This document shows positions 9,635 to 26,049 of a stretch of DNA of 64,000 bases, piece after piece. Below the pieces are notes generated by a model. The model saw only the letters and a list, made by a program, of their open reading frames with translations. It searched no databases and was not told the DNA's origin. Origin of the DNA: a virus; the IMG/VR virus record IMGVR_UViG_3300044629_000131, positions 1 to 64,000 of that record. One strand, given 5' to 3'. The translations under genes were made by a program, and so were the position numbers. Positions within the stretch are counted from its first letter, which is position 1, and every line of letters begins with the position of its first letter.

Positions 9635-9841
9635 ATGGATTATATAAAAGTTAGTGGTCATGACGGTCTTGTAAGGGATCAAAATACAGGTGCTATCTTG
9701 AATTTAGACGATTATGCTATAGAGTCTAGAAAGAAAGCAAAGTACTTGAGTTCCGCGATCAATGATATAAATATGTTGAAGAATGAACTAAGTGAAATCA
9801 AAAAATTACTAAGAGAGATAATAAAAAATGGCGGTTCTTAG
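9635..9841 (+). CDS. Small conserved phage protein with C-terminal coiled coil
   Basis: KVSGHDGLVRD..TGAILN followed by a heptad-like C-terminus. Sits between structural genes. Confidence 0.75.
   Translation: MDYIKVSGHDGLVRDQNTGAILNLDDYAIESRKKAKYLSSAINDINMLKNELSEIKKLLREIIKNGGS
9766..9773 (+). promoter_or_regulatory. T4-type late promoter TATAAATA
   Basis: Exact T4 late consensus about 55 nt upstream of ATG 9828. Confidence 0.65.
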
Positions 9842-12800
9842 ATCGGTTGCTAAAACAGATACTTTTGAGAGTCAAAGATTAACTATCAATTTAATAGGTC
9901 AAGATTTATTCTCACTATCTTCTGGTACATCAGCGCAAGAATTTGCAAGACTACTGGTATCAGACGGAACCGAAGTATTGCCATCGTATTCATTCTCCGA
10001 TGAATCTAACCTTGGATTATACAGAAGTGATATCGCATCAATTTCTGTTACGGCATCTGATTCAAATGTATTTAAGTTTTCATCAAATGGTAATGTTTCT
10101 TATAGAGACTTAAAATTTACAAAATATTATATTCAAAATGCTGATATCAGCATTACAGATCCTGGTTCTGGATATGATGTTGGTACTTATACAGATATTC
10201 AATTAATTGGAGGATCTGGAACAGGAGCAGTTGCTGATATTATTGTATCTCCAATCGTAGGATCTATAACAAATTCTGGTTCTGGATATACCGAAGGAAA
10301 TTATGGAAATCCATTTAAATTTAGGACAATATCTGGTTCTGGTTCTGGAGCAAGAGGAACGATTGTTGTTTCAAGCACTGGCAATATCAGTTCTTTTGTT
10401 ATAACAGATTATGGAACAGGATTTGTATCTGGTAATACTATAGGATTATATCAACCCCTATCTGGTGTTTCTACAACTTTAAGCACATCAAGTACACAAA
10501 TAACTGTTCCCAGCACGACAACAATTGTTACTGGATCCACGGTAACTGTTACATCTGGAACTGGAACATTAGCCGCACAAACTACTGTTAGTAGTATCAT
10601 TGATAATACTACTATCGAATTATCTACAGCGCCAACAGCAGATGGAAGTGCTATTCTTATATTCACTCCATTGTATGGAAATGGTAGCAATTTTGTATAC
10701 ACTATTTCCGAAATTGATTCTGTAGAATCTATTGATGTTATTGGTGGTGGTAGTGGGTATAAACTTGGTGATATTGTTACAGTAAATCCAGGAGATTTGT
10801 CCGTTCCAACGGAGTATGATGTTGATATAGTCACTCTACAATCTATAACATTTAGTGGAACGATAACATCTGGAACTTTTGTAGTTGGTGGCACTATAGA
10901 GTTATCATCAGGTGGATCCCCTTATGAAATTTATGAAGTTAATACATCTGGTGGAAATATTACTTCTATAGTAGTCGCAAATGGTGGATTTCAAGCATCC
11001 GATGTCATTATTAAAACTGGAATTGTTTCTCCAACGTATACAATTGCCACTGCTACAAATACCGATAGATATAGAATAGATGATGTTGTAACTCCAGATA
11101 TCACACTTTATGTTGGATCAAAGTATATATTTAATTACCCATCTGGACATCCATTCTCACTATCAACAACCAATAATGGTATTCACAATGGTGGAACTGA
11201 ATACACAAATGGAGTTACTAGAGACGAAATCGCAAATACTCTTACAGTAATACCAAATATATCATATCCCACTACCATATATTATTACTGTACAAATCAT
11301 TCTGGAGAAGCTGGATCTGGCAACTTTACAATTAGTTCAAGTAATCCCAATCCCCCAGGAAGTGGATTACAAATAACTTTATCTACTATATCTATAGATG
11401 ACACTGTAGATATTGATATTGTTGATGGAGATATCAGTTCAAATTCGGCAACAATTCAGAATCTCACATCATCTACTGGTAATATAACAGCACTAACATC
11501 AACTAATGGATCTATAGTTAGTTTATCTTCAACGACTATTTCTGGACAAGGTAGTGGTCTGACATTATCTTCTAGCGGTACTACAAATATTACTATAAAT
11601 CCTGGCGCCAATTTAAACATTGGATCTGCTCTATCAATTGAAAAAAGTTCTGGTAACATCACAACTTCTGGTGTCATTAAAAGCACAGGGTCCTTCAATT
11701 CATCAGATGTCTTAACAATCCAAACTAATAATATTTCTTCAACTGGAGACAATAATATCGTTTTGTCTCCAGCAACTGGAAAAAATGTAAAAGTTTCTGC
11801 TACTACTTCTTTAGTTGTTCCTGTTGGAAATACTTTACAGAGACCATCTGGGGCAAATGCTGAGAGTGGATCAATACGATTTAATACAGAAACACAACAA
11901 TATGAAGGATATAATGCTTCTGTGGCAGCATGGTCATCTCTGGGAGGAGTAAGAGATGTAGATGGAAACACATATATTATTGCTGAAGAATTTACTGGAG
12001 CAAATGATAATAATATATGGTTTTATAATGGAGGTATAAACACACTAAGAGTCACTCAAAATTCTTTAGATCTTATAGATGCGAGAACAATAAAGTCATA
12101 TGATTATTCTGGATCTGAACATTGGGCGCCATTTAAATATTTTTCTCTTGGAGACTTCGTATCTTATAATGATAATATTTACGAAGTTACATCTGCTGGT
12201 CTAACCGATTCAGATCCACCTGTTCATATCACTGGATCTGTAATTGCTAATGGTGGAAATCCACCTATCGTAGGAGCAATTGCTACGTATACCGTTTCAA
12301 CCCCCTCTGGAAATAATTCCACTGGAAATTATACGTATGTAGATCCATATGGCGGAGCAACATTTTTCATAGTTTTCTCATCTGGCAGTTTAATAAGTAT
12401 TGATATAACTTCACAAGGAACTGGTGGATATTCTATTACTGGTGGTGGAGTTAGTAATATCATCACTATTCCTGGAACATCTATTGGAGGAGAAACACCA
12501 TTAGATAATTTAACAGTAACAGTTACTGGACTTGCTGGAGCTATTGAACTTACATTTGATAGACTAGCATTTGGAGAAGTTATTTTTGATAGTGTAACGG
12601 ATGTATCTATAAAAAATGCTCCATTATTTGTACAAGATACTACTACTTCAGCACAATTAGAAATTTCATCTGAAGGTATTGAGTCTAATGGAACTTTAAC
12701 TCTGACAGCGCCAGCAGGTTCCAATGTTGTTATTGATGCCGTATCTTCCCTTGCTATCCCATCTGGAACTGAAGCTCAAAGAGGAACTCCAATTCCAGGA

Positions 12801-13631
12801 TCTATAAGATATAACACAACTTCAAATCAATACGAAGGTTATAATTCTTCGTCTTCAAATTGGTCATCTCTCGGTGGAGTGAGGGATGTAGATGGCAATA
12901 CTTATATTGTTCCAGAGTTATCATCTGGTAGCAATGAAAATATTTTATATTTTTATAATGACGGGGCAAACACATTACAAGTAAAAAAAACTGATCTGAG
13001 ATTTGAAGAAATTGATACAATAACTTCAGCAAATGAATCTTTAGATTTTAATGTCAATACTGTTAGTTTCAATACTACAGATTTTTCGATTGATAATAGC
13101 AATTTATCTACTTCTTTACTATCTTCATCAAAAACAAATCTTGATTTGGGAATGAGTGTGGGATTAACAGTAGATACTGTTATTAGATTTACTTCAAGTG
13201 GAGAAATTTATTTGAATAAATCTTTCGGAACTGGAATATTTAATGGCATTAAGTTTTTAGATAACGCATTAAAAACTTTTGAACTTGATGATGTTCAAAT
13301 CAAAACATTTGAGATAGTATTACAAAAAGGAGTTACAAACTCTGGATCTACATCTATTTACGATCCAAATATCATAAGTAGTTCAAAAATAACAGTAAGT
13401 GCTGTAGATATAGTTACTGACGATGTTCAAACAGAAGAATATAATGTTATAGTCAAGTCTGGTGACATATATAACGTTGAGTATGGATCAAATAAAACAT
13501 CAACGTTATATTCTGCTTCTTTTGATATATCTCCAGCTGGCAATTTGAGAATTAATATTACTCTCTCTAATAGCGTTCCTGTAAATAATGAAGTTGTTAT
13601 TACTATAATTAGTACAAACGTTAAGAAATAA
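9828..13631 (+). CDS. Virion structural / short tail-fibre-like protein, 1267 aa
   Basis: S/T/G-rich beta protein with GSGY modules, a duplicated GSIR(F/Y)N..YEGY..WSSLGGVRDVDGNTYI block, a cupredoxin-like HPF...YYYCTNH motif and a CBM5/12-like W...Y segment. Confidence 0.8.
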   Translation: MAVLRSVAKTDTFESQRLTINLIGQDLFSLSSGTSAQEFARLLVSDGTEVLPSYSFSDESNLGLYRSDIASISVTASDSNVFKFSSNGNVSYRDLKFTKYYIQNADISITDPGSGYDVGTYTDIQLIGGSGTGAVADIIVSPIVGSITNSGSGYTEGNYGNPFKFRTISGSGSGARGTIVVSSTGNISSFVITDYGTGFVSGNTIGLYQPLSGVSTTLSTSSTQITVPSTTTIVTGSTVTVTSGTGTLAAQTTVSSIIDNTTIELSTAPTADGSAILIFTPLYGNGSNFVYTISEIDSVESIDVIGGGSGYKLGDIVTVNPGDLSVPTEYDVDIVTLQSITFSGTITSGTFVVGGTIELSSGGSPYEIYEVNTSGGNITSIVVANGGFQASDVIIKTGIVSPTYTIATATNTDRYRIDDVVTPDITLYVGSKYIFNYPSGHPFSLSTTNNGIHNGGTEYTNGVTRDEIANTLTVIPNISYPTTIYYYCTNHSGEAGSGNFTISSSNPNPPGSGLQITLSTISIDDTVDIDIVDGDISSNSATIQNLTSSTGNITALTSTNGSIVSLSSTTISGQGSGLTLSSSGTTNITINPGANLNIGSALSIEKSSGNITTSGVIKSTGSFNSSDVLTIQTNNISSTGDNNIVLSPATGKNVKVSATTSLVVPVGNTLQRPSGANAESGSIRFNTETQQYEGYNASVAAWSSLGGVRDVDGNTYIIAEEFTGANDNNIWFYNGGINTLRVTQNSLDLIDARTIKSYDYSGSEHWAPFKYFSLGDFVSYNDNIYEVTSAGLTDSDPPVHITGSVIANGGNPPIVGAIATYTVSTPSGNNSTGNYTYVDPYGGATFFIVFSSGSLISIDITSQGTGGYSITGGGVSNIITIPGTSIGGETPLDNLTVTVTGLAGAIELTFDRLAFGEVIFDSVTDVSIKNAPLFVQDTTTSAQLEISSEGIESNGTLTLTAPAGSNVVIDAVSSLAIPSGTEAQRGTPIPGSIRYNTTSNQYEGYNSSSSNWSSLGGVRDVDGNTYIVPELSSGSNENILYFYNDGANTLQVKKTDLRFEEIDTITSANESLDFNVNTVSFNTTDFSIDNSNLSTSLLSSSKTNLDLGMSVGLTVDTVIRFTSSGEIYLNKSFGTGIFNGIKFLDNALKTFELDDVQIKTFEIVLQKGVTNSGSTSIYDPNIISSSKITVSAVDIVTDDVQTEEYNVIVKSGDIYNVEYGSNKTSTLYSASFDISPAGNLRINITLSNSVPVNNEVVITIISTNVKK
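11800..12985 (+). repeat. Two copies of an ~85-aa fibre block in the 1267-aa protein (about 11800-12060 and 12740-12985)
   Basis: SLVVPVGNTLQRP..GSIRFNTETQQYEGY..WSSLGGVRDVDGNTYII..FYNGG versus SLAIPSGTEAQRG..GSIRYNTTSNQYEGY..WSSLGGVRDVDGNTYIV..FYNDG. Confidence 0.85.
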
Positions 13632-14192: not shown

Positions 14193-17100
14193 ATGAGTCT
14201 AGAATTTAATGCTGATAGGCAGGAAGTAAGAGCTTCTAATCTTAAAATTTCTAGTTCGGATGATTTAACATTCCGTTCTGGAAATGGAAATGACGAAAAA
14301 GAAGTTTTACGTGTATTGATTGATCCTGTAAGTAAGCTTCCTCGTATTGGTGTTAATAGAACAGGAAGAAGATTACAAAGCATTACAGTTTTAACAGCTG
14401 GAAGTGGATACACAATTGCCCCAAGTGTTCTTATTTCCCCACCAGATGATCTTGTCAATGGAATACAAGCAACTGCTACCGCACTAATTCTTGGTGGTTC
14501 GTTATTAGGAATCTCAATCAACAATGTTGGATTTGGATATTCTTCCCCACCTACGATCACAGTATCTGGAGGTGGAGGATCTGGAGCTACCGCAGAAGCA
14601 ATACTAGACACAGTAGATTATGAGTTAGATGTTAATGGCGCTATCAGAACATCAACTTCCATCATTTCTGACACTGCAAGAATTTTAAACCTCGACATTG
14701 AAAATTTTGTTACTCCAGATATTAATTTCAGAGCACCAGACTTAAAAATATACGCGAATAATGCTGGTAGTATTTGGGAACCAAATACAACTTATCAAAT
14801 TAATACAATATTATATTTTGGCGATAATTTATATCGCGTAGAAAATAATGGAATATCTGGAACCAGTGCTCCTTTATTCAAAGATGGTTCTGCCCAAAAT
14901 GGACAGATTTTATTGAAGCATGTTGGATTTAGAGTAAATGATGATGAAAAACCATTTTATGAACAGACAATTTATCCTAGATCAGTAACACCACCTCTTG
15001 GCGATAAATCTGATAAAATTGCTACAACAGAATATGTTTTAAATCTTGCAACAAATGATGTTGGTGGTCGCGTCTATGTTTCACAAGAAATTGGAAATGA
15101 TGCTAACAATGGTAGATCGGCTGCTGCGCCAGTAAGAACAATTAAGAGAGCATGTCAAATTGCTTCCGCAAGTATTGGAGTTAAAGAAACTGTCATTATT
15201 TCTGGCGGAGATTATGTAGAAGATAACCCAATTTCAATTCCACCAGATTGTTCTATTGTTGGTGATAACCTACGTCTTGTAATTATTAGACCAGGAAATC
15301 CTCGCAAACATATGTTTAAGTTTGCGGATAAAAACTATATCACTGGAATTGTTTTCAGAGATCAATTAGATGCCGAACAAAAACCAGTATCCACATGGGA
15401 TTTTGCTGTAGCATTTGATGATAAACAAAGATTGTATTATGACCCAAGTGTTGGTGGTGATTTCTTAAGAAATTTTCCAATTGGACATCAGATATTTGGA
15501 AAATTAAAATTTAGAGTATTTTTCCAAGATCATACTGGTATTCAAGTTACTGGCGGAAACCCAACTGGTTCTTTCTTTACAATTGGCGCTCAAGTTATTG
15601 GTGTCAACACTGGAGCAACTGGTATCGTTACGGCTATTACTTACGATGAGACTAGTGGTAATGATGCTTACGAATCTGGAACTTTTGATGTTGAAGTTAC
15701 AGGTGGTTCTTTTGCTATTGGTGAAACTTTTGAATATGATGTTGGCACTCCGCCAAGTGCTATTACGTATTCAATGGTATCAAATGATATTGTTTCAATT
15801 CGTGCCGAGGGTGAAGTTGTCTATCATGGAACGCAAGCATCATCCCCATTGAATATCACTAGAATAGATGGTTCTTTACAAGGAACTTTTACTGGTGGAT
15901 TTGGTGGCGATGATGATTTGGGTGGTTTGGTCTTTTATACAAACCCATTAATAGGTGCTCAAAACATTCACGATTTTAAAGAGGGTCAAGAAATTGTAAT
16001 TTCTGGATTGACTGGTAATCTATCTGTCTGTAATGGAATACAAAGGATCTATAAAGTAATTGAAGATGCTGACGGTAGATCTAGAAGATTTGTAATTCCA
16101 AAGAAACTACCTTCTTTTACAGATAGCAACTATATTCCACCAGGAAGTGTCACTGTAGTATCAAGATCATATTATATTCTTGTATCATTATTAAACTCAC
16201 CAAATAAATTTGAAAGCACTGCTTTTGTAGGAAGAAGATGGCAAGATGCTACCAATTTAATTAGAAATAGTATTGAATTTATTAAGGATGAAACTTATTT
16301 AAAAGTTACCGACGAATTTAATGGCATTAATTATACCACATTTACTCAACCAAATCCAGATAAATGTCGTAGAGATATTGGACATTTTGTAAATGCCATC
16401 TGTAATGACTTACAATTCGGAAGTAACTTCAATGTAATTGAGGCAGCGAAGAGATACGTTGCTGGAACTCAAATTGGGTATATTGGCAATGAAATTACAG
16501 AGACAGTTAGAGCTTTTGAAATAGCAAAAGACTTATGTAAACTTGCTGTTAGAAATTGGCATACTGGAAATGGAGCATATTCACAACCTCTTTATACAGC
16601 AGAATATTCCCAACTTTCATATTATGTAGATTCAACAGTAATTGAAGACACTACACCACCAACGTGTGATGATGTTGTATCAGCTGTTGACACTCTTGGT
16701 TACTTGTTTGTTGACGTTATAACAAATAACGCAGCTAATAGATATCTTGATGCTTGCGAATTAATTGCCAGAAATGAAGAGGTAATTATTGAGGAAGTTA
16801 TTGGTGAAGTATCTACCGCATATCCAGATTTTTATTATCCAGATACAAGTCCAGATGGATACAGATTTAAAGATTCCAGAAATTTAATTTATTCTAACTT
16901 AGAAGAAATTAAGGATAGAGCAATTGCTAAAATTGCTGTCTCCCATCCAGATTTCTATTTCCCTGGAGATACACAAACTACTCAATACAGCAGATTTTAT
17001 GATGCTTATAGATTGATTCAGCAAAATATTAAAGAAATTAAAGATAGAGCACTTGCTGAAATTTCCGTTCAATATACAGAAGCTGGATGGGGCACAGATT

Positions 17101-20100
17101 GGATTATTCCAGGTGATACTATTTCCCAGGCTCGCGCTAGATTTTATGACGCATACCGCTTAATTCAAAAAAATAGAAATATTCTTGTTGAAACCGCATA
17201 TGCTACTGTAGTATCTTCACCACCAGTACCTGCTCCAGCAGATTTACTAGCAAAATGTAAGAGAGATATTGGATATTTTATTGATGCGGTATCACTAGAC
17301 GTATTTTTGGGTGGGAACGAATATTCCAGAAAGTTTATTCAGCAATATTATAATAATGGTACTCCAATTTCAAATGGTTTAGTTGGAGAAGAAACACAAT
17401 CGGTAACTGCATTTAATAAGGCAAGAGATGCCATGGCAGCAGCAGTTACCAATACTCTTGGTAGTTTTAGTGGCGTAGTAACTTCCAGTCCTGCTGGTGG
17501 AACATGGGTTGACGGATCAACAGGAACAAAAACTGTTTATACGGATTTAACAATTTCGTCTGGACCAGCAACTAATGGTGGAGGCGGTGGGAACATTGCC
17601 AATAATAATAGTAGCGCATGTGCTGATGTTAGAAGTGCTATTACAACCCTTTCTGGAATTATTACAGATAGAATTACTGCTGGAAATTTGAGTGGATTGC
17701 CATCAGAAACTCTAGGAAGTCTTTATTCTGGTTCTTCTAAGTGTTGGAGAGATATTGGGTATTTTGTTGATGCGATTTCTCTGGATCTTTTTGTATCATC
17801 AAACAAATATTCAAGACAATTCATTCTTCAGTATTTTGATAATGGTACTCCAATTTCAAATGGTTTAGTTGGAGAAACAGCGCAATCTGTTGTTGCGTTT
17901 AATATGGCTCGTGACATGATGAAAAAAGCAGTCACTAACCAATTATACGTAAAAGATCTTACAATATCAGATGGTCCAGCAACATATGGTGGCGGAGGTG
18001 GAGATATTCCAGTTTTACAATCTGGAAATGCTGCTGCTTGCGCTGACGTACAAAGTGCTATCACCACTCTTTCTGGCATTATTACTGATCGTATTAGTGC
18101 TGGAAATTTAACGGGGCTACCATCAGAAACTGCCCCAGTCTATCAAACTGGACAAGCAAAGTGTCGTAGAGACGTTGGATATGTTATCAAGGCAGTTGCT
18201 AATGATCTTTACAATGGTGGAAACTCAAATATTATTCTAGCAACAAAATATTATTTCGATTCATCTGGAACTCCAATTTCAAATGGTTTAGTTGGAGAAA
18301 CAGCTGAGAGTGTTACTGCTTTCACAGCAGCAAGAGATGCGATGAAGTTGGCAGTTTCTAATCAACTATATGTGAAAGATTTGACACTTACTGTTGATCC
18401 AGTTACTGGATCAAACACAAATATTAATTCATGTGCTAATGTTCATTCAGCAATAGATACTTTAGTTGGAATTATAAATTATGCCGTTTCAAATTCAACT
18501 TTAAGTAATTTACCAGCAGTTAACACTGGAATTTACTTAACTGGTGAGAATGTATGTAAGAGAGATATTGGATACATTCTTTCAGCACTAAGAAGAGATA
18601 TAACCCTGGGAGGAAATGCTGGCATAGTTTCTGCTGGAGAAGCATATTTTAGTGGAGCGGTCTTAACTGGAATTTCTCAAGCAGAATTACCAGTTACAAG
18701 ATTTGCGTTTGAAAAAGTTAGAGACCTTGCTATTCTTGCCGCAAGAAATTGGCGTACTGGAAATGGCGCGTACTCACAACCATTATATGAACCAAAATAT
18801 TCTATCATTCCTTTATATACTGACAGCACAGTAACAGAAGATACAACACCTCCAACATGCGATAACGTTGTTTCTTCTATAACATCATCATTCGCAACAC
18901 TTGATGATATTTTAGACGGTGGAACAATTCCATCAAAAACATATGGAACTCTTTACAATACAGATAGTATTATCAATATTCCAGATAATACTGTTTATGA
19001 CGCAGATAATCTTTACACGAACTTACTAACTGTATATGACGATCTGCCAATTATTGAGGCTTCTCCATATATTCAAAACGCATCAGTAATTTCTTTCCTT
19101 GGTGGTGGTGGTGCTGAAATTGATGGTAAGAAGGTTAAACAACCAAACTGCCCTTTCCCTGGACTGGAACCAGATGGCAATGCATCATATCCAAATCAAG
19201 GAAAATCAATGGTTGCTGCTCAGTTTACCATCATTACGTTCAACGGAACTGGATATCTTATTAAGAATGACGGTTATACTCAGCTAGTTTCTGTTTTCGT
19301 TCTGTTTGCTAGAGATGGTGTACTTGCTGATACTGGAGGTTATGCTTCAATCACAAACTCAGCAACAAACTTTGGTATCTATGCTCTAAGAGCTATCGGA
19401 TATAGAGAAGAACCATATGTATTTGATATTGGAACTATTGTAAGTACAAATATAACTCCAAATGGAAGTACTATTTTAAGAATTGGCGGATTGGGAAGAG
19501 AACCACTTGAGCACTACATTGTAAAATTTGCTGACTATGAAAATCAAGATCCAGATATTGAATATTATATTGATGGTGTAAGCAATGTTTCAGTTGGTCC
19601 TCCATTTACAGCTTCGTGTGCGTTAAATGCTCCGATTTTAATCAAGAGAAAATCAAATGGCACAAACGTTGCGGTAGTAGATGATGCGGAAATGGTTGGT
19701 AAGGAAGTAAGATTACATAGACCATCTATTGTTAACTCATCATCACATACTTGGGAATTTGCTGGTTCTGGTACAGACTATAATGCACTTCCAGAAAATG
19801 GAGGAACAAAGATAGACGCTTACGAGCAAGTATCAGAGGCATATGGAAGAGTTTACACTTCTGGTACTGATGAACTTGGAGACTTTAAAGTAGGTTCTTT
19901 TGCCAAGATTGAAAACAGAACTGGTAATATCACATTTACTGGAACTGTTAGTATCTCCGAAGTTGAATTCCTCAAGTTAAAAGGTGGAGATGTTGTCGTT
20001 ACTGGATTTTCTGCTGCTAATAATCTTGGCGGTGCTTTTGCTAGCGATTCTCTGATTGCTACCCAAAAAGCAATTAGAGATTATATTGGTAATAATCTTG

Positions 20101-23100
20101 GACCATATCTCAACAAACCATATTCAACAAACGCTGTTCCAAGAGCTCTTGTTGAATTAACAGATTCTGGTAAGATATCACTAGATCAAATACCAGCACT
20201 ACGACCATTCAGTGTATTTACTGTTGATGATTTATCCGCAAGATTAGCACTTGAAGGTCCATTAGCAGGCGATATTGCTATCCAAACAGATACAAATACA
20301 TCATTCATTCTGAATAATGACCTTACTAGTCTATATCTTGGAATTCCTGTTGATAACTCATATACCTTTACGGTTGGATCTTTGGTTACTGGAGATTTAA
20401 CAAATGGAATTCTTCAAGTTACCGAATATCGCAAAGGTGTAGTTTACGAAATTCAAATAACTGATTCTGGATCTGGTTATACTTCAGCACCAACAGTAAC
20501 TGTTGGTGCTCCAGGAACTGGTGTTTCCGCAACAGCTGTTGCTTCTATCGCAAATGGGGAAGTTGTTACTGTTACAATAACATTTAATAATGGATATATT
20601 GGTGGTTATGGATACACTACTGCTCCAACAATTTCATTTAGTGCTCCTGGTGCTGGAGGAACTACTGCGGCTGCTAATGCTCTGATAGAATCAAGAGTTT
20701 ATGGAGACATAGTTAATAGAATTAAGATATCAGATACTGATTCAGTATTAGATCATTCTGGAACACCAATTTCTGTTAATGTAACTAGGGTCATTAATAC
20801 ATCTGCATCAGATGCTAATAACTGGGTTTCTCTCTCATCATCTTCTGTTTCTGCTCAAGATATTACTTCTGGTGTAATTTCAACATCAAGACTTGCTCAA
20901 AATTCATCTGAAGCAAATTCATTTACATTCTTAGCTGGTGATCAAACATATAAACCAGTAACTCAAACAATCAAAGCACAAGAAAGAAGGTATTTCTTAA
21001 AAACAATTGCCACTTCAACAACTCCATCGGCAGCATTAGTAGTTCAACCAGATTCTAGACTGTTAATAGGGCATGAAGTATTTGGTAATGGTATCGCAGA
21101 AAATACCACAATTTCCCAATTAATAACTACAGAGGGAACAACTACTATTACATTAAGTTCTCCTATAACTCAAAATATTTCTAGTGGTTCTGTAATCACA
21201 TTTAGAAGACCAGAGTCTGTAGTTCTATTTGAGTCATCTTTCGTAAAGACAAACTATATTGATTCTATTATTATTCAAAGTGGTGGATCTGGATACACAA
21301 ATGGTCAATACTTTGGTATCCCATTAACTGGAGGAACTGGCACTGGATTAACAGCAAATATAGTTGTGTCTAGTGGAGAAGTTACTAGCATTACAGTAGC
21401 AGATGGTGGTGTTAATTATACGGAAGATTTTGTTGTTGATGATGAACCCATCGTTCTTGGCGCTGGAGTTGGTCTAGTTTTACTGGCAAAATTAGCTGGA
21501 AGCACAAAAAATGCTGGTGTGATTGGTATGGATATTAAGAGAGTTGATGACAAAACTCTTAATGCTGATCCATATGGAAATGCTGGTGTTGCTAGATTCT
21601 TAAAATCCGATACTCCACTTGGAAGAATTGGACAGTTTAGATTTTCTGCTGGTGGTGGTGTTTATATTGACCAAGGCCCAGATTCTGGATTTGATGCGGA
21701 TAAACTCGATGGACAGCAGGGCAATTATTACCTAAACGGTGCTAATTTCTTAGATGCTAGTATTTCCCCATCTAAGCTAACAAGTGGAACTTATAATATT
21801 GATATCAGTGGACAGTCTGGTAATACACTAAGACTAACTACACAAACAGGAAACCCAAATAATAGTGCGTTACCAAACGTATCTAATGTTGGTATAACAT
21901 CAGATTGGAGAGCTAATACTGCTGATGGATTAGTAGATCCGTTTAGACCAAGCGATCCAGATAGCGGATATCATGGAGTAATTACATTTAGACAATTTGG
22001 AAGTGCTAATGACCAAACTGGTGGTGGAGTAAGACAATTAGGATTTACGGATAAAAACAATTTATGGATTCGTGGATCTGGTGCTGGAGTTGCAAACTGG
22101 AGTGATTGGAGAGTTGTTTGGACTAGTGGAAATGATGGTGTGGATAGTGGTCTTGATGCTGACAGATTGGATGGAAAACAAGGATCCTTCTACCAAAATG
22201 CCCAAAACATAAACACTGGTGTGTTTGGAGCATACCACCTACCAACATTATTTGACACAACAAAAATACTCACAAATCTCTCTATTCAAAGTTATGATGG
22301 CAATCCATTCTATAACATCTATATTTCTGGAAAAGCATTAACAACATTCCCATTCCAGGTTAATCAAACTGTCAATCTTTATGATAGTAATCTACAGGGT
22401 GTTGGAAGTGTTTACATTAGTAATGTTACTGCTGATGGTACTAGTGCTGACTCAACAGATCATTATACAATCTTAGAGGTTAGATTGGATAATGGTGGAT
22501 TTGGAAATGCTATAAGAATTGGTACAGCATCAATCAATGAAATCTTCCATGATTATACCCCCTCTACACAAACAGCGAGAGAGTATGCTTCCTTAACTTC
22601 TTCTGGTGGATCTGGAAGATTGCGTTTGGGTTCTTTAACTACATCATCTTCCCCAGTAGTAGACTTTAACTCAAGCGGAAATAATATCACATATGATGTA
22701 AGACTTCAAGCTACTGGTGGTAATTCATCCAATGGCAATGGAGAACTCAATGTTATTGTTGCGAATACAAACTCACTTAAGGTTAATAATAATATTGTTT
22801 GGAATGCTGGAAATGTAACATTTAATTCTGGTCTAAGTTCTGGAGCATATAATACTGCTGCCAATGGAACAGCTGTACTGAGAGATTCCACTGGCAATTT
22901 TGCTGCTAATTTTATAACAGCTTCGCTCATTGGTGCCGCTTCTCTAAACGTTCTCAAGACTGGTGACACAATGAGTGGCGATCTGACTGTTGGATCGGTT
23001 ACTAGATCATCCAGTTCTTTTGTACGTGTATTGAGTAACGATTCAAATAGTGCTGGATTTGAAGCGTATGGGAACAACCAGGGAACTGGATACCTATACA

Positions 23101-24335
23101 TTGGTCAGTCTAATGCTTATGGTGGTGGATTGTCATATAACGGTGATGGATCTCCAGCATATGCTACTGGAGAAATAGCAGATAACATTGCTTTCTATAG
23201 AACAGATAATGGCACAAGAACTGTTGTTTTCCAATATCCATATAACTCAAATACCGTAACTTTTGCTGGTGCTATTACAACTGGAGAAGCAATATTTAAT
23301 GGTGGAACAAATAGTAATGGAAATGATGCCACAGTTTACATAACAGCAACTAACAACAACGATTGGGGACTTATTGTTGACAAATACAATGGTTCCGCAA
23401 CAGAATACGGAATTATGGTTGATGTTGGTTCTTCTGCTACTTATGCTTTAAGAGTTAGAGGAAATGACAGTGAAACCTTTAGAGTTGGTGGTAATGGTAA
23501 TATTGTCGGTACTGGACTTGCTCTAGGAACTACTGGAGATATTACATCGGTAAGAACTATTACTTTATCGGGTAATATTTCACTAACCGCAAACTCAACA
23601 AGAATTCAACAAACTTCAACTTCTTCTTGGAGTGGTGACGCTGGAACAGGATTTGGTAAACTTGAATACCACTCAAACAGATGGTATATCAATGCTGGTT
23701 CTGATAGCACAGAAATTCTAAGAATTAGAAGAGGCGGAACTGATCAGGTAGTTATTGATAACAGTGGTAATACTTCTTTTGGTAATACTTCAACTGCTAC
23801 AATTACAGCTGGTCTACTTCGCTTGGGATCTGGAGCATCAGATGGTATCCAAATTACTGGTTCGGCACCAACAATCTCATTTAGAGACACGGATCATAGA
23901 ACTGCTTATGTTCATGTTAATAGTAACATATTCTATGTTTTAGGTGGTGGGGTTAACGCAAATCCTGGAGCATGGTCACAAGTTGCTAATAGCAGATGGC
24001 CTCTACAAATTGATCTTACAAATAACAATGCTCAATTTGGAGGTGATATTGATGCCAATACTGGTAACGTTTTTGCTAGAAGTTTCAGAACACCAGGAGC
24101 ATCATTTGGTAGTGGTTCTGTTGGAAGTGATGCTAATAACAATAATTATGTTTTATACGCCAATGGAGATAGACAATGGTTGGATTCATTTGGGGTTGTC
24201 AAAGCAAATAGACAATCAATTGGAGAGAATTTAACAATACCAACAACACTCAATGCTTGTAGTTATGGACCAATCACGATTAATAATGGCGTTACTGTCT
24301 ACATTGGAAACGGTGGGACGTGGACAATTGTTTAA
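14193..24335 (+). CDS. Giant tail-fibre/appendage protein, 3380 aa: beta-helix-like domain interrupted by five helical C-x-R-D repeats, with a C-terminal fibre
   Basis: Beta-helix entry motif VYVSQEIGNDANNG..PVRTIKRA..GDYVEDNPI, fibre motifs DSG(F/L)DAD(K/R)LDG and WSDWRVVWTSGNDG, and C-terminal GPITINNGVTVYIGNGGTWTIV. Confidence 0.85.
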   Translation: MSLEFNADRQEVRASNLKISSSDDLTFRSGNGNDEKEVLRVLIDPVSKLPRIGVNRTGRRLQSITVLTAGSGYTIAPSVLISPPDDLVNGIQATATALILGGSLLGISINNVGFGYSSPPTITVSGGGGSGATAEAILDTVDYELDVNGAIRTSTSIISDTARILNLDIENFVTPDINFRAPDLKIYANNAGSIWEPNTTYQINTILYFGDNLYRVENNGISGTSAPLFKDGSAQNGQILLKHVGFRVNDDEKPFYEQTIYPRSVTPPLGDKSDKIATTEYVLNLATNDVGGRVYVSQEIGNDANNGRSAAAPVRTIKRACQIASASIGVKETVIISGGDYVEDNPISIPPDCSIVGDNLRLVIIRPGNPRKHMFKFADKNYITGIVFRDQLDAEQKPVSTWDFAVAFDDKQRLYYDPSVGGDFLRNFPIGHQIFGKLKFRVFFQDHTGIQVTGGNPTGSFFTIGAQVIGVNTGATGIVTAITYDETSGNDAYESGTFDVEVTGGSFAIGETFEYDVGTPPSAITYSMVSNDIVSIRAEGEVVYHGTQASSPLNITRIDGSLQGTFTGGFGGDDDLGGLVFYTNPLIGAQNIHDFKEGQEIVISGLTGNLSVCNGIQRIYKVIEDADGRSRRFVIPKKLPSFTDSNYIPPGSVTVVSRSYYILVSLLNSPNKFESTAFVGRRWQDATNLIRNSIEFIKDETYLKVTDEFNGINYTTFTQPNPDKCRRDIGHFVNAICNDLQFGSNFNVIEAAKRYVAGTQIGYIGNEITETVRAFEIAKDLCKLAVRNWHTGNGAYSQPLYTAEYSQLSYYVDSTVIEDTTPPTCDDVVSAVDTLGYLFVDVITNNAANRYLDACELIARNEEVIIEEVIGEVSTAYPDFYYPDTSPDGYRFKDSRNLIYSNLEEIKDRAIAKIAVSHPDFYFPGDTQTTQYSRFYDAYRLIQQNIKEIKDRALAEISVQYTEAGWGTDWIIPGDTISQARARFYDAYRLIQKNRNILVETAYATVVSSPPVPAPADLLAKCKRDIGYFIDAVSLDVFLGGNEYSRKFIQQYYNNGTPISNGLVGEETQSVTAFNKARDAMAAAVTNTLGSFSGVVTSSPAGGTWVDGSTGTKTVYTDLTISSGPATNGGGGGNIANNNSSACADVRSAITTLSGIITDRITAGNLSGLPSETLGSLYSGSSKCWRDIGYFVDAISLDLFVSSNKYSRQFILQYFDNGTPISNGLVGETAQSVVAFNMARDMMKKAVTNQLYVKDLTISDGPATYGGGGGDIPVLQSGNAAACADVQSAITTLSGIITDRISAGNLTGLPSETAPVYQTGQAKCRRDVGYVIKAVANDLYNGGNSNIILATKYYFDSSGTPISNGLVGETAESVTAFTAARDAMKLAVSNQLYVKDLTLTVDPVTGSNTNINSCANVHSAIDTLVGIINYAVSNSTLSNLPAVNTGIYLTGENVCKRDIGYILSALRRDITLGGNAGIVSAGEAYFSGAVLTGISQAELPVTRFAFEKVRDLAILAARNWRTGNGAYSQPLYEPKYSIIPLYTDSTVTEDTTPPTCDNVVSSITSSFATLDDILDGGTIPSKTYGTLYNTDSIINIPDNTVYDADNLYTNLLTVYDDLPIIEASPYIQNASVISFLGGGGAEIDGKKVKQPNCPFPGLEPDGNASYPNQGKSMVAAQFTIITFNGTGYLIKNDGYTQLVSVFVLFARDGVLADTGGYASITNSATNFGIYALRAIGYREEPYVFDIGTIVSTNITPNGSTILRIGGLGREPLEHYIVKFADYENQDPDIEYYIDGVSNVSVGPPFTASCALNAPILIKRKSNGTNVAVVDDAEMVGKEVRLHRPSIVNSSSHTWEFAGSGTDYNALPENGGTKIDAYEQVSEAYGRVYTSGTDELGDFKVGSFAKIENRTGNITFTGTVSISEVEFLKLKGGDVVVTGFSAANNLGGAFASDSLIATQKAIRDYIGNNLGPYLNKPYSTNAVPRALVELTDSGKISLDQIPALRPFSVFTVDDLSARLALEGPLAGDIAIQTDTNTSFILNNDLTSLYLGIPVDNSYTFTVGSLVTGDLTNGILQVTEYRKGVVYEIQITDSGSGYTSAPTVTVGAPGTGVSATAVASIANGEVVTVTITFNNGYIGGYGYTTAPTISFSAPGAGGTTAAANALIESRVYGDIVNRIKISDTDSVLDHSGTPISVNVTRVINTSASDANNWVSLSSSSVSAQDITSGVISTSRLAQNSSEANSFTFLAGDQTYKPVTQTIKAQERRYFLKTIATSTTPSAALVVQPDSRLLIGHEVFGNGIAENTTISQLITTEGTTTITLSSPITQNISSGSVITFRRPESVVLFESSFVKTNYIDSIIIQSGGSGYTNGQYFGIPLTGGTGTGLTANIVVSSGEVTSITVADGGVNYTEDFVVDDEPIVLGAGVGLVLLAKLAGSTKNAGVIGMDIKRVDDKTLNADPYGNAGVARFLKSDTPLGRIGQFRFSAGGGVYIDQGPDSGFDADKLDGQQGNYYLNGANFLDASISPSKLTSGTYNIDISGQSGNTLRLTTQTGNPNNSALPNVSNVGITSDWRANTADGLVDPFRPSDPDSGYHGVITFRQFGSANDQTGGGVRQLGFTDKNNLWIRGSGAGVANWSDWRVVWTSGNDGVDSGLDADRLDGKQGSFYQNAQNINTGVFGAYHLPTLFDTTKILTNLSIQSYDGNPFYNIYISGKALTTFPFQVNQTVNLYDSNLQGVGSVYISNVTADGTSADSTDHYTILEVRLDNGGFGNAIRIGTASINEIFHDYTPSTQTAREYASLTSSGGSGRLRLGSLTTSSSPVVDFNSSGNNITYDVRLQATGGNSSNGNGELNVIVANTNSLKVNNNIVWNAGNVTFNSGLSSGAYNTAANGTAVLRDSTGNFAANFITASLIGAASLNVLKTGDTMSGDLTVGSVTRSSSSFVRVLSNDSNSAGFEAYGNNQGTGYLYIGQSNAYGGGLSYNGDGSPAYATGEIADNIAFYRTDNGTRTVVFQYPYNSNTVTFAGAITTGEAIFNGGTNSNGNDATVYITATNNNDWGLIVDKYNGSATEYGIMVDVGSSATYALRVRGNDSETFRVGGNGNIVGTGLALGTTGDITSVRTITLSGNISLTANSTRIQQTSTSSWSGDAGTGFGKLEYHSNRWYINAGSDSTEILRIRRGGTDQVVIDNSGNTSFGNTSTATITAGLLRLGSGASDGIQITGSAPTISFRDTDHRTAYVHVNSNIFYVLGGGVNANPGAWSQVANSRWPLQIDLTNNNAQFGGDIDANTGNVFARSFRTPGASFGSGSVGSDANNNNYVLYANGDRQWLDSFGVVKANRQSIGENLTIPTTLNACSYGPITINNGVTVYIGNGGTWTIV
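16230..18920 (+). repeat. Five helical repeat domains (R..DA..LI..N / C.RD(I/V)G(Y/H) / C..V.S)
   Basis: C.RD Cys codons at 16365, 17256, 17742, 18162 and 18555. Second Cys codons at 16665, 17619, 18039, 18432 and 18858. Confidence 0.9.
17361..18299 (+). repeat. Three identical 30-bp direct repeats actccaatttcaaatggtttagttggagaa
   Basis: Copies at 17361-17390, 17847-17876 and 18270-18299, encoding TPISNGLVGE. Confidence 0.9.
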
Positions 24336-24365: not shown

Positions 24366-24923
24366 ATGAGCACTGTAATAACTAATAATGTATTTTCTGT
24401 AGATGGAAGACCTCTTCTTTTTTCATCTGGATCAATAGTTCAATGTACAGTTGTTCGCATGGATACGAGGACTGGAATATCTTGTTCAAATAGTGGAAAT
24501 GGAACTGAAATTACTGGTCTACGATTATTCATCACACCAAGGAGTGCTTCCAATAGAATTATTTGTAAATGGATGATGAATGGCGAATTTAGCAATGAAA
24601 ACTGTGTTGTTACTATTTTCAGAAATGGTGGATTAATTACAGATGGTGGCGCACAGGGATACAATGCTCAAGGCGGAAATACTAGGTGGTCTGGAGTATC
24701 TACATCAGTTTATGATCAGAATAATGACTCAACTGGTCAAAATACCATAGTAACTTGGTCTGGAATAGCAAACACAACTTCTTCATTATTTTTTGCTCCT
24801 GCTGTAAGAAGTTCTAATAGTGGAAACTACACGTTTTTTATTAATAGAACTGTTGCGTCAAATGGACAAAATGCTTATGAAACACCGTATTCAACTGGAG
24901 TGTGTTGGGAGGTAGCAGTATGA
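24366..24923 (+). CDS. Fibre-associated beta protein, paralog 1 of 3
   Basis: Shares ITP, (G/A)E...N, NRT...Q..E and a terminal ..(W/F/Y)E motif with the next two ORFs. Directly follows the fibre gene. Confidence 0.75.
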   Translation: MSTVITNNVFSVDGRPLLFSSGSIVQCTVVRMDTRTGISCSNSGNGTEITGLRLFITPRSASNRIICKWMMNGEFSNENCVVTIFRNGGLITDGGAQGYNAQGGNTRWSGVSTSVYDQNNDSTGQNTIVTWSGIANTTSSLFFAPAVRSSNSGNYTFFINRTVASNGQNAYETPYSTGVCWEVAV

Positions 24924-25486
24924 GTAATTTAAAAGTTAACAGTATTACAAATACAAGTGGTAAAAGATTATTGGATAGTACTGGAAATATAGTTCAAACA
25001 GTATATGTTAGAACTGATAGTAGAAGTGGTTGGTCTTCCAATAACAGATATCAATTTACTCCAATCACAGATTTAACACTTGAAATCACACCAAGAAATC
25101 CAGATAATATAATTGTCGTTCAATGTAAATTATTTGCTGAAATACACCATGATAATTTAATGACAATTCTGGCAGATTATGGTTCTGGTACATTGCCATA
25201 TGGTGCTGTAGAAGGATATTCAATGGCAAACTTTAACCCAAGATACATTGGTATGATCGCAGGAGATTATACAGGTGCTGATAATAGTTCAACCTCCAGA
25301 GATTTCTTTATGCAGGGAATTTGGAGAGCAAATGGTACTAGTGCGATTAGGTTTATGCCAGGTTGTAAAGGTTCTGGGGGTGCTGATTATACACTCTTTC
25401 TCAATCGGACACAATCATCAACTGGTCAAGATTCATTTGAAGCTGGGATTTCTGATATGATTGCTTTTGAAGTTTCACAGAGGTAA
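24920..25486 (+). CDS. Fibre-associated beta protein, paralog 2 of 3
   Basis: Likely start is ATG 24920 (ATGA overlap, MSNLKVNSI), matching the paralog N-termini. Confidence 0.75.
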   Translation: MSNLKVNSITNTSGKRLLDSTGNIVQTVYVRTDSRSGWSSNNRYQFTPITDLTLEITPRNPDNIIVVQCKLFAEIHHDNLMTILADYGSGTLPYGAVEGYSMANFNPRYIGMIAGDYTGADNSSTSRDFFMQGIWRANGTSAIRFMPGCKGSGGADYTLFLNRTQSSTGQDSFEAGISDMIAFEVSQR

Positions 25487-25491
25487 AATTT

Positions 25492-26049
25492 ATGTCAATA
25501 CTAAGAGTAAACACCGTTCAGACTACTGCTGGACGAAATATATTAACCAATGACGGTCCAGTTATTCAGGTTAATACGAAAATGACCGATAAAAGAATTG
25601 ACATATCATCTCCAAATGGTGGAAATGGAACACCAATATATGAACTTGGGGTTGGCATTACACCAACATCTTCATCCAGTAGATTAATCATAGAGTGGAT
25701 GATAATGGGTGAATTACACCAAGATAATGTCTTTACAATTTATAGAAATGGTGGTTTAGCAACAACATCATTTGAAGAAGGATTCAATAGAGATGTAGGA
25801 AATCAAAGATGGTCTGGCATTGCTTCTGCTTGGTATGATAGGGATGAAAATTCCACACCTTCATGTTGGTATCTATTGTACCATTGTATTGCCAACACAA
25901 CTTCATATACTTATTTTTATCCAGCTGTCAGGAGTTCTTCCACAGGAAACTATAATTTCTATTTAAATAGAACTCAAGGTTCATGGGGTCAAGAAAACTA
26001 TGAGGTTGGTATTTCATCTGTTACAATTTACGAATCAATCAGACCATAA
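25492..26049 (+). CDS. Fibre-associated beta protein, paralog 3 of 3
   Basis: MSILRVNTV..., GELHQDNVFTIYRNGGL, RWSGI and PAVRSS..GNY.FY.NRT align closely with paralog 1. Confidence 0.75.
   Translation: MSILRVNTVQTTAGRNILTNDGPVIQVNTKMTDKRIDISSPNGGNGTPIYELGVGITPTSSSSRLIIEWMIMGELHQDNVFTIYRNGGLATTSFEEGFNRDVGNQRWSGIASAWYDRDENSTPSCWYLLYHCIANTTSYTYFYPAVRSSSTGNYNFYLNRTQGSWGQENYEVGISSVTIYESIRP

Follow-up and report, generated by a model that had tools for sequence, protein, structure and literature searches.

The window (the whole 64-kb stretch of viral DNA that we analysed) encodes a giant tail-fibre protein that quite probably contains five phycobiliprotein-fold (PBP-fold, globin-like) domains, four of them nested and forming a stalk. 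The geometry of the stalk and its role are inferred. Each domain consists of a short N-half (A) and a long C-half (B), and the five of each follow one another as A B A A A A B B B B. Within 16230-18926, the first domain would be contiguous, and the next four would be nested in the A-B loop (Table 1).

Table 1. Features of the giant tail-fibre gene (positions in the window; residues in the 3380-aa product).
Feature	Position	Strand	Interpretation	Basis
3380-aa ORF	14193..24335	+	Giant tail-fibre / virion structural protein of a T4-like cyanomyovirus	ORF list, translation, PHROG
S (aa 290-419)	15060..15449	+	Host-domain piece, start of beta-helix-like domain	Partial DUF1565 match
M (aa 421-675)	15453..16217	+	Insert, presumably beta-rich, separating S from the PBP units	
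A1-B1 (aa 680-847)	16230..16733	+	Contiguous PBP-fold domain	HMM matches; AF2 model aligned to PBP beta chains
A2 (R850)	16731..16829	+	N-half of outermost nested domain	HMM 32.9 bits; predicted contacts with C1455 unit
A3 (R891)	16854..16952	+	N-half	HMM 40.0 bits; predicted contacts with C1324 unit
A4 (R934)	16983..17081	+	N-half	HMM 47.0 bits; predicted contact with C1184 unit
A5-B5 (R983 + C1022)	17130..17687	+	Innermost contiguous domain, presumed tip	HMM; Pfam PF00502
B4 (C1184)	17727..18107	+	C-half, A4 partner	HMM 158.3 bits; predicted contacts
B3 (C1324)	18147..18500	+	C-half, A3 partner	HMM 147.8 bits; predicted contacts
B2 (C1455)	18540..18926	+	C-half, A2 partner, B1-like	HMM 85.8 bits; identity to B1; predicted contacts
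R (aa 1613-1770)	19029..19502	+	Host-domain piece, interrupted domain resumes	Contiguity with S in homologues

In PHROG, the product matches phrog_5342 (tail fiber; E = 0, 3780 bits) as well as phrog_4527 and phrog_701. Its closest named relative is from S-PM2 (56.7% identity over aa 670-1636). The S-PM2 protein d088 is the orthologue (~56% identity) and has the same order of units, while a second giant S-PM2 protein (3779 aa) reads AABBABAB. S-PM2 d088 and d218 and a putative short tail fibre of S-RSM4 (phrog_5342, 4527, 701) are the same class of giant structural protein, and they are annotated only as hypothetical or as tail fibres; in the part of PMC9910659 available to us, d088 is treated as a very large hypothetical protein. 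Our literature search found no paper on the PBP-fold content of giant cyanophage structural proteins and no earlier description of a nested PBP-fold array. Matches are found in 297 sequenced phage records, every one a cyanophage, and in at least 1605 representative proteins (E <= 0.001). All 150 of the listed representatives that carry the units are between 730 and 7903 aa.

To locate the units, we ran HMMs for A and B against the six-frame translation of the whole window. There were five matches for A (24.5-47 bits) and five for B (86-158 bits), and no match in the 64 kb outside the array of this ORF, so the repeat pattern is not due to chance. The N-half motif starts at R681, R850, R891, R934, and R983, and the motif C[KRW]RD[IV]G is at C725, C1022, C1184, C1324, and C1455. 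All of the half positions and quoted strings given in an earlier note on this DNA, including RNWHTGNGAYSQPLY...EDTTPPTC and RNWRTGNGAYSQPLY...EDTTPPTC, are present in the sequence and lie within this single ORF. The note had described repeat 1 as contiguous, which it is, with a C-half following the N-half at R681; this C-half starts at C725, which makes the repeat ~aa 676-847. The note also stated, correctly, that the last C-half resembles the first (B2 is 44% identical to B1 versus only 26-31% to the inner three) and that the inner three resemble each other (69% for B5-B4, 55% for B4-B3, and 49%). Among the N-halves, the identities of neighbours are 45% for A3-A4 and 44% for A4-A5.

Together, A and B are a PBP domain. 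Pfam's PBP family (PF00502) matches aa 981-1045 of the protein at 25.9 bits, which is above the family's cut-off of 22.2, and matches a homologue, P0003, at 54.1 bits (E = 2.3e-14). Precomputed matches to PF00502 are present in 100 of 120 listed homologues. The suggestion that such split domains evade ordinary searches thus does not wholly apply, as PF00502 finds the innermost, contiguous copy; the earlier note did not recognise the PBP fold of the repeat. Single contiguous units rarely suffice (only 8/69 have E <= 0.001 against PF00502). A profile built from these 69 units matched 123 sequences in PDB at E <= 1, and the best 60 of the 123 are all phycobiliproteins, with C-phycocyanin alpha at the top (E = 1.1e-7). 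When compared to 27 cyanobacterial PBPs with hhalign (probability 95.5%, E = 1.5e-8), the phage K-C-x-R-D superposes on their invariant C84-R86-D87. Finally, VIA-align aligned residues 1-175 of an AF2 model with PBP beta chains (Z of 15-17, rmsd of 2.4-4.7 A over 134-157 residues; 248 chains had Z >= 8), and Foldseek gave a probability of 1.00 and a TM of 0.56-0.66, normalised to the target. By both tools, the predicted model has the all-helical, globin-like PBP fold.

The N-half, of ~33 aa, is a kinked helix equivalent to PBP residues ~35-62. The C-half, of ~120-150 aa, corresponds to PBP helix E onward and opens with the K-C-x-R-D bilin-site motif. The junction between A and B is at about position 58-70 of the PF00502 profile. 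The N-terminal part of the PBPs (roughly the first 20-33 residues) is missing: the structural alignments begin at chain residues 20-33, and the hhalign alignment begins at PBP column 34. In PBPs, the N-terminal helices before residue ~20-33 serve alpha/beta pairing. The phage units share fold, sequence, and the Lys-Cys-x-Arg-Asp motif with the phycocyanins, phycoerythrins, and allophycocyanins of cyanobacteria and red algae. In contrast to those free subunits of 160-185 aa, however, they are modules in virion proteins of 2000-7900 aa (3380 aa here), several residues that are invariant in PBPs have been lost, and the domains are split and nested.

An insertion at the same position of the fold is found in a cyanobacterial frame of 898 aa, where the matches to PF00502 positions 2-55 and 68-153 are ~66 aa apart. 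We take this frame to be ApcE and its insertion to be the PB-loop; paper titles agree with this naming. In ApcE, the insert is one unstructured or unrelated loop, whereas in the phage proteins it is a further copy of the same domain, recursively.

The conserved bilin site raises the possibility that the nested domains are working biliproteins, whose Cys (with the Arg and Asp) binds a bilin derived from the host. Attachment would be spontaneous, by host lyases, or by the phage's CpeT, and a light-absorbing fibre might underlie light-dependent adsorption. There are no binding data, and we consider this unlikely, but it is the alternative that holds up best. Across 925 B units, the residues aligned with the chromophore site of the 27 cyanobacterial PBPs (Cys84-x-Arg86-Asp87) are conserved almost throughout (Cys 98%, Arg 92%, Asp 98%, and the preceding Lys 84%), as compared to a mean column identity of merely 22% in the alignment of 69 units. 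Of the units, 78% have a second Cys and 742/925 have exactly two, so much of the conservation of the Cys could be due to a disulfide; on the other hand, the Cys is retained in 101 units that have no second one. In the predicted complex of the halves (described below), the Cys is towards the A helix, and the Arg and Asp are outside the interface residues in all three layers, so packing of A against B does not explain why Arg and Asp are conserved. A real PBP-family domain, that of the ApcE-like frames, also has an insertion at this loop. Against a bilin, the phage consensus does not keep L92, R93, and Y97, which are invariant in cyanobacterial PBPs, and the units lack the N-terminal part. To our knowledge, there is no report of pigmented virions.

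CpeT-family genes are present in all five near-complete genomes of relatives, but none of the five encodes a ferredoxin-dependent bilin reductase. Also, cpeT lies beside the tail-fibre module in S-RIM2 and P-HM2 without any units within ~20 kb downstream, and it is reported from >60% of T4-like cyanophages in the portion of PMC10665884 that we could consult, so its linkage is not specific. According to the accessible part of PMC6628666, adsorption of S-PM2 and P-HM2 depends on light, which may be due to receptors of the host, to the tail fibres, or to both. The units are present in both of these phages, of which S-PM2 is the closest relative, but they are also present in S-RIM2 (for which there are no data on light and adsorption). 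A more doubtful extension still is that the fibre is a virion-borne biliprotein: its nested and tandem PBP-fold units would retain the Cys-Arg-Asp site because a bilin is attached to them inside the infected cell, perhaps by CpeT of the phage, and the fibre would act as a light sensor gating adsorption. If so, the light-dependent adsorption of S-PM2 and P-HM2 would be explained by a pigment-loaded stalk, and the bilin genes of cyanophages would gain a role in building the particle; the substrate of CpeT has so far been unclear.

With or without a pigment, several lines of evidence support nested PBP-fold domains in the order A2[A3[A4[A5-B5]B4]B3]B2, as the earlier note proposed. First, the numbers of N- and C-halves vary together, as it had expected. 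The number of A units equals the number of B units in 102/121 homologues, all 102 of which form balanced-bracket words, and the order is balanced and properly nested at 70/79 viral loci. Merging split B matches raises the number of balanced homologues to 105. The exceptions (19/121 homologues and 9/79 loci) include no protein with a surplus of A: all 19 have too many B units, and lowering the threshold for A mended none of them. With the same HMMs, only 29 of 139 held-out cluster representatives were balanced. Most of the unbalanced representatives belong to a divergent plain-tandem subfamily whose A part is missed by the short HMM; among the representatives with two consecutive A matches, 24/37 are balanced. 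Because the homologues are related, these counts are not independent events.

Second, insertions and deletions are mirrored. Orthologues have the orders ABAABB, ABAAABBB, ABAAAABBBB, and ABAAAAABBBBB. One (P0040) lacks A4 and one B at the B5/B4 boundary, another (P0057) lacks one A at A3/A4 and one B at B4/B3, and a third (P0056) lacks the single block A4-A5-B5-B4. In all five orthologues that we compared, A and B were lost at matching levels or as one central block. Judging from the identities between neighbouring units (B5-B4, B4-B3, A3-A4, and A4-A5), the array seems to have grown by adjacent layers expanding in pairs and not by the repeated entry of a new domain, which qualifies the earlier note's inference that each domain was inserted into the loop of the previous one.

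Third, similarities among the A units parallel those among the B units. Nested pairing gave a higher correlation than first-in-first-out pairing in 34/39 proteins, and in 34/39 no more than 5% of shuffles attained the nested correlation. The window's protein alone gives a weak nested correlation (r = 0.43), which 12% of shuffles attained. Identity to S-PM2 drops symmetrically towards the centre, from 76% for A2 to 70% for A3, 61% for A4, and 44% for A5, and then 42% for B5, 58% for B4, 69% for B3, and 58% for B2, so that A5-B5 is the least conserved layer.

Fourth, we gave A2-A4 as one chain and B4-B2 as the other to ESMFold2. The predicted complex had an ipSAE of 0.84 (the best of three controls had 0.00), a mark that is reached by 58/80 solved complexes and by 2/110 mismatched pairs. 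The runs had at least 85% of contacts in common, and partner pLDDT was at least 79. The contacts with the lowest predicted error are between mirror positions and are three of the four pairings that the note had named: A2 with the C1455 unit (aa 857-869 with 1508-1516 and 1542), A3 with C1324 (aa 899-910 with 1332-1387), and A4 with C1184 (aa 950 with 1188). This prediction rests on one ESMFold2 job and may owe something to solved PBP structures that the model has memorised.

Most tail fibres are trimeric, and the A helices could instead complete the B units of a neighbouring chain, as an inter-subunit domain swap. Pairing between chains at the same level would give the same balanced counts, mirrored indels, and mirrored conservation, and the two-chain model pairs A with B without a covalent link through the inner domain. 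However, the short linkers of A5-B5 and A1-B1, along with their PBP-like contiguous domains, show pairing within the chain for the contiguous units, and AF2 gave the monomer a pTM of 0.66 without partners (A-helix pLDDT of 74-92; scores only, without coordinates or PAE). We regard a swap as improbable. The idea that there is no nesting, in which case the four N-halves would make up their own helical bundle or coiled coil and the four C-halves would be self-sufficient tandem three-helix units, seems hardly tenable: plain tandem arrays do exist in the family (54/139 representatives have only contiguous units), but their units each keep their own A part (matches to the AB profile start at positions 4-16), and the balanced counts, mirrored indels, nested similarity correlation, and predicted contacts are all contrary. 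Thus, neither of the observations that were proposed to refute nesting, unequal numbers of halves or N-halves forming a bundle of their own, has done so.

The nested PBP-fold array itself sits within another domain, as had been suggested. S and R are contiguous, ~12 aa apart, in four homologues (P0003, P0042, P0026, and L025), which confirms, at the level of sequence comparison, that a host domain is interrupted by the array (from aa 419 to 1613). Of 200 homologous proteins and ORFs, 191 contain R, and only 50 contain module M, as found by jackhmmer. In P0025, L073, and P0064, the array lies inside S, at profile position ~37. That the host domain is a beta-helix is only weakly supported, by a partial match to DUF1565 (PF07602): aa 300-359 match positions 2-60 of 257, at 22.1 bits (cut-off 20.3). 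Searches of Pfam with the region after the array, and of PDB sequences with the host domain, gave no match. An AF2 model of aa 1590-2050 had short periodic strands but is unreliable (pLDDT of 45.4), and the structural leads from the Atlas were all below 0.9.

If the domains are nested as proposed, then the chain would run out along the four A helices and back through the four B units, with each A completing the B of its own level. The two ends of the array would be side by side, so another domain can carry it in one of its surface loops. The result would be a rigid, helical stalk that is longer the more layers it has; the layers appear to be gained and lost as mirror pairs of A and B. Close orthologues have two to five layers, and the order of units implies up to ten elsewhere. 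The innermost and fastest-evolving domain, A5-B5, would be the exposed, variable tip. A role in reach or host contact is inferred, and there are no data on where the protein lies in the virion or what it touches.

In flagellin (D0-D1-D2-D3) and in the T4 sheath protein gp18, domains are formed from N- and C-terminal segments with the next domain between them, so that the ends are adjacent and the structure projects. The proposed out-and-back nesting of the phage array is similar. Their nested domains differ in fold and their depth is fixed, whereas in the phage array one fold is inserted into itself, to a depth of 2-5 in the orthologues and, by the order of units, of up to 10.

It appears that phages have adopted the fold of their host's photosynthetic antenna as a structural module of their particles, in a clear natural case of a domain inserted into itself recursively and to variable depth. 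Such nesting would be a simple route to a rigid projection, tunable in length and suited to insertion into any loop, and is relevant to protein evolution and design. Domain annotation has a blind spot for split halves separated by hundreds of residues. Finally, given the conserved pigment-binding motif and the presence of the units in two phages whose adsorption is described as light-dependent, in the excerpts available, a part for light sensing in adsorption, and the role of cpeT, can now be tested by spectroscopy.

The helical repeat in this stretch is a phycobiliprotein (PBP) domain, an antenna fold derived from the host, which the earlier note had overlooked. Each domain consists of a short N-half (A) and a long C-half (B). 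The note had placed N-halves at R681, R850, R891, R934, and R983, and the later C-halves at C1022, C1184, C1324, and C1455; all of these are present as given, and the motif C[KRW]RD[IV]G is found at C725 and at these four Cys positions. We made HMMs for A (33 columns) and B (115 columns) and refined them with homologs. Scanned against all six reading frames of the entire window, they matched the array alone, in the order A B A A A A B B B B, with 24.5–47 bits for A and 86–158 bits for B. The last C-half does resemble the first (44% identity, versus 26–31% to the inner three), and the inner three are alike (49–69% mutual identity).

Pfam's PBP family (PF00502) matches aa 981–1045 of the giant protein with 25.9 bits (the cut-off is 22.2) and the homolog P0003 with 54.1 bits (E = 2.3e-14, profile positions 33–138). 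The hit per se is in plain view: database pipelines already tag many such proteins, and among the matches listed, 100 of 120 homologs had a precomputed PF00502 tag. Searched singly against Pfam, only 8 of 69 contiguous A-B units reached E ≤ 0.001. Of these 69 units, two belong to the window and 67 to viral loci; the 67 are what was left once 201 units had been dereplicated to 68 and a single 89-aa fragment had been discarded. A profile of the 69 units found 123 PDB sequences at E ≤ 1; the best 60 of the 123 were all phycobiliproteins, with C-phycocyanin alpha at the top (1.1e-7). We also compared this alignment with 27 PBPs from five cyanobacterial genomes using hhalign (probability 95.5%, E = 1.5e-8, 82 columns), and the phage K-C-x-R-D aligned onto the invariant C84-R86-D87 of the cyanobacterial proteins.

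The predicted structure gave the same family. An AF2 model of aa 670–1620, from a 19-sequence alignment (pLDDT 75, pTM 0.66), matched phycoerythrin beta chains in Foldseek with a probability of 1.00. With VIA-align, 248 chains reached Z ≥ 8, and model residues 1–175, which are the contiguous first domain (A1-B1), gave Z of 15–17 and rmsd of 2.4–4.7 Å over 134–157 residues; all 50 entries among the matches listed superpose on this first domain only. The alignments begin at about residue 20–34 of the PBP; the phage units therefore lack the N-terminal helices that true PBPs have. A gives way to B at about positions 58–70 of PF00502. In an 898-aa cyanobacterial frame, which we take to be ApcE, about 66 aa interrupt the PF00502 profile between positions 55 and 68. 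This break implies that the phage units are nested in a loop that already tolerates insertion in a cellular domain of the PBP family.

The earlier note had proposed that domains 2 to 5 are inserted one inside another, so that four N-halves are followed by four C-halves in reverse order. We confirm its observation, and unit counts, mirrored indels, sequence similarity, and ESMFold2 contacts support the nested interpretation. Among 121 proteins (the window's and 120 homologs), A and B are equally numerous in 102, and every one of these reads as balanced brackets. Merging split B hits repaired three more (105/121), while lowering the A threshold rescued none of the 19 unbalanced proteins. There are 32 distinct orders in the 121 proteins: 21 are balanced and the other 11 all have surplus B. 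Across independent viral loci, many of which are cut at their ends, 70/79 loci and 18/24 distinct orders are balanced. An alternative parse with a profile of the joined A-B unit is less sensitive to lone A units (70/121 balanced) and was left out of the main count. Close orthologs form a series: ABAABB, ABAAABBB, ABAAAABBBB (the window and S-PM2), and ABAAAAABBBBB. In five homologs (P0014 and P0020–P0023), one B unit is seemingly split, at about aa 1238–1297 and 1685–1786 (profile columns 4–41 and 29–117, with ~390 aa between). Judging from sequence alone, this suggests a second insertion site within the C-half, after helix E.

Losses in the homologs are mirrored. P0040 lacks aa 929–977 (A4) and aa 1136–1278 (one B at B5/B4); P0057 lacks aa 905–947 (A3/A4) and aa 1183–1322 (B4/B3); and P0048 and P0051 have similar mirrored losses. 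P0056 lacks one central block, aa 928–1322 (A4 A5 B5 B4). Conservation relative to S-PM2 is also mirror-symmetric (A2 76, A3 70, A4 61, and A5 44; B5 42, B4 58, B3 69, and B2 58). We asked if A-A similarity correlates with B-B similarity under each pairing in 39 balanced proteins with at least 8 units (at most 3 per order, drawn from the 102). The correlation was higher for nested than for first-in-first-out pairing in 34 of the 39, with one tie and four cases of the reverse, and in 34/39 proteins at most 5% of 300 shuffles reached the nested value. For the window's protein alone the correlation is weak (r = 0.43; 12% of shuffles reach it).

To predict the pairing, we gave ESMFold2 aa 845–975 (A2–A4) and aa 1175–1580 (B4–B2) as separate chains, with the inner domain omitted. 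The ipSAE scores were 0.84, 0.84, and 0.85, as compared to 0.00 for the best of 3 controls; the ipSAE mark was met by 58/80 solved complexes and 2/110 mismatched pairs. The runs had at least 85% of contacts in common, and partner pLDDT was at least 79. The contacts with the lowest predicted error join aa 857–869 (A2) with aa 1508–1516/1542 of the C1455 unit, aa 899–910 (A3) with aa 1332–1387 of the C1324 unit, and aa 950 (A4) with aa 1188 of the C1184 unit, which are exactly the three partners that the earlier note had foreseen for these N-halves. The ESMFold2 pass may owe something to solved PBP folds that the network has learned; the pairing register of the model would not be derivable from a solved structure.

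To examine the wider family, we searched 1.84 billion representatives with the profile and found 1605 proteins at E ≤ 0.001. The 150 matches listed of these 1605 are 730–7903 aa long, with 3–36 matched stretches each. Among the matches listed, only 29/139 newly found representatives are balanced with the A and B HMMs (24/37 among those that show two A hits in a row). A large divergent subfamily is plain tandem, (AB)n, reaching about 34 units, and the short A HMM overlooks its A part. With the A-B profile, the 139 new proteins parse into 1248 contiguous units, 190 lone B, and 58 lone A, and 54 of the 139 contain contiguous units exclusively. The tandem proteins lie within P0122–P0260 (such as P0122, P0125, and P0137), with up to ~34 contiguous units in a 6382-aa protein and contigs of up to 194 kb. 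The tandem-only subfamily indicates that the module has two topologies, tandem and nested, and that the balance counts can be trusted only among its S-PM2-like proteins.

The earlier note had also placed the array inside a beta-helix-like domain. We searched 200 homologous proteins and ORFs for the start of this host domain (S), the insert that precedes the first PBP unit (M), and the resumption of the domain (R). Of these, 97 have both S and R, 94 have R alone, and 50 have M; M is a separate, optional insert whose fold is unknown. In four homologs (P0003, P0042, P0026, and L025), about 12 aa separate S from the R that follows it, with the array further downstream. P0025, L073, and P0064 carry the array within S, at about profile position 37, with flanking S sequence a few residues away at most, and P0121, L059, and L060 are similar. 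These arrangements imply that S and R form one domain and that PBP arrays have been inserted at no fewer than three sites, which agrees with an insert that has its two ends side by side. Insertion into another domain thus stands, while its beta-helix nature rests on a DUF1565 match to the first 60 profile positions only. Pfam gave nothing firm for the host-domain fold beyond this partial match, PDB sequence searches with both array flanks gave no match at E ≤ 1, and ESM Atlas gave only sub-threshold leads (0.76–0.85). An AF2 model of aa 1590–2050, after the array, was too poor for structure search (pLDDT 45.4, pTM 0.40). Within it, a beta-rich stretch (model residues about 150–250) has pLDDT of 70–92 and, if the model is right there, may be a small inserted beta domain.

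Coordinates of the giant ORF, its parts, and neighboring ORFs
Feature	Residues (aa)	Window position	Strand	Length (aa)
Very large upstream ORF		1512–9608		2698
Very large upstream ORF		9828–13631		1267
Giant ORF, holds the entire A/B array		14193–24335	+	3380
Host-domain start (S)	290–419
Insert (M)	421–675	15453–16217
Host-domain resumption (R)	1613–1770
Beta-rich stretch	about 1740–1840	about 19410–19710
Small ORF directly 3' of giant gene		24366–24923		185
Small ORF directly 3' of giant gene		24902–25486		194
Small ORF directly 3' of giant gene		25492–26049		185
2OG-Fe(II) oxygenase gene		27106–27693

By PHROG, the giant ORF is a tail-fiber or virion structural protein (phrog_5342, E = 0, plus phrog_4527 and phrog_701), and other virion genes flank it. 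The source record is 84 kb and about 44% complete. The nearest named relative is Synechococcus phage S-PM2 (56.7% identity over aa 670–1636), and all 297 matching phage records are cyanophages. The S-PM2 ortholog, d088, is described in one article as a very large hypothetical protein that gained mutations during co-evolution with the host (PMC9910659). S-PM2 has a second giant protein with PBP-fold units (L193, NC_006820.1, 165928–177267), with 3779 aa, the annotation short tail fiber, and the order AABBABAB; within this CDS sit 16 annotated tRNA features that share its locus tag, seemingly a case of inconsistent annotation. In the window, neither of the two upstream ORFs has PBP-fold units by the A/B HMM scan, and the larger matches solely PHROG families of unknown function (phrog_358). 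The three small ORFs each match the C-terminal 170–190 positions of phrog_6942 (tail fiber protein) and, from these matches only, look like a tandem triplet of fiber-tip-like paralogs. The oxygenase gene (phrog_81) lies amid structural genes; such genes likewise adjoin the giant fiber genes of S-PM2 and S-RIM2.

We conclude that this fiber protein carries a PBP-fold module that, following one contiguous copy, is nested to a depth of four, all within a loop of another of the protein's domains. In the full-text literature, without subscription journals and supplements, we found no phycobiliprotein-like domain described in a phage structural protein and no description of a domain recursively inserted into itself. 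That the array is a stalk is our inference. The out-and-back chain would form a rigid rod, with roughly one helical-bundle length per layer, and gain or loss of mirror A/B pairs would change its length. The innermost and least conserved domain, with a long variable loop ahead of its last helix, would be the exposed tip. Growth might proceed by duplication of neighboring layers, as suggested by the identity gradient among the units.

The residues of the PBP chromophore site are conserved across 925 B units (Lys 84%, Cys 98%, Arg 92%, and Asp 98%), as are five more polar positions of B (93–98%), and Asn15 of A is conserved in 100% of 784 A units. Of the B units, 78% have a second Cys, which might pair with the first; 101 units have a single Cys only. 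In the ESMFold2 complex, the Cys is turned towards the A helix, and the Arg and Asp are outside the listed interface. CpeT-family lyase genes are found in all five near-complete relatives and are often close upstream of array genes. cpeT lies within 3 kb upstream of the array match at 13/79 loci. In S-CAM1, S-CAM3, ACG-2014e/i, Sf-CH1a, and AG-345-P14 the distance upstream is 1.3–3.7 kb, and for the second array gene of S-PM2 it is about 1.4 kb. In S-PM2, S-RIM2, and P-HM2 (L193, L194, and L195), the cpeT homolog has a conserved slot between the gp5 baseplate-hub genes and the tail-fiber genes, with or without PBP-fold units in the adjacent fiber genes. We did not count this linkage as specific evidence for pigment attachment, because in S-RIM2 and P-HM2 cpeT occupies the same slot beside fiber genes without PBP units and because cpeT is common in T4-like cyanophages (PMC10665884). 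CpeT, bilin reductase, heme oxygenase, and psbA are absent from the window's 84 kb record, which is uninformative as the record is a 44% complete fragment. PBP-fold units are present in both S-PM2 and P-HM2, and adsorption of these two phages requires light; the cause may be host receptors and/or tail fibers, according to one article (PMC6628666). Bilin binding by the phage units is a directly testable possibility.
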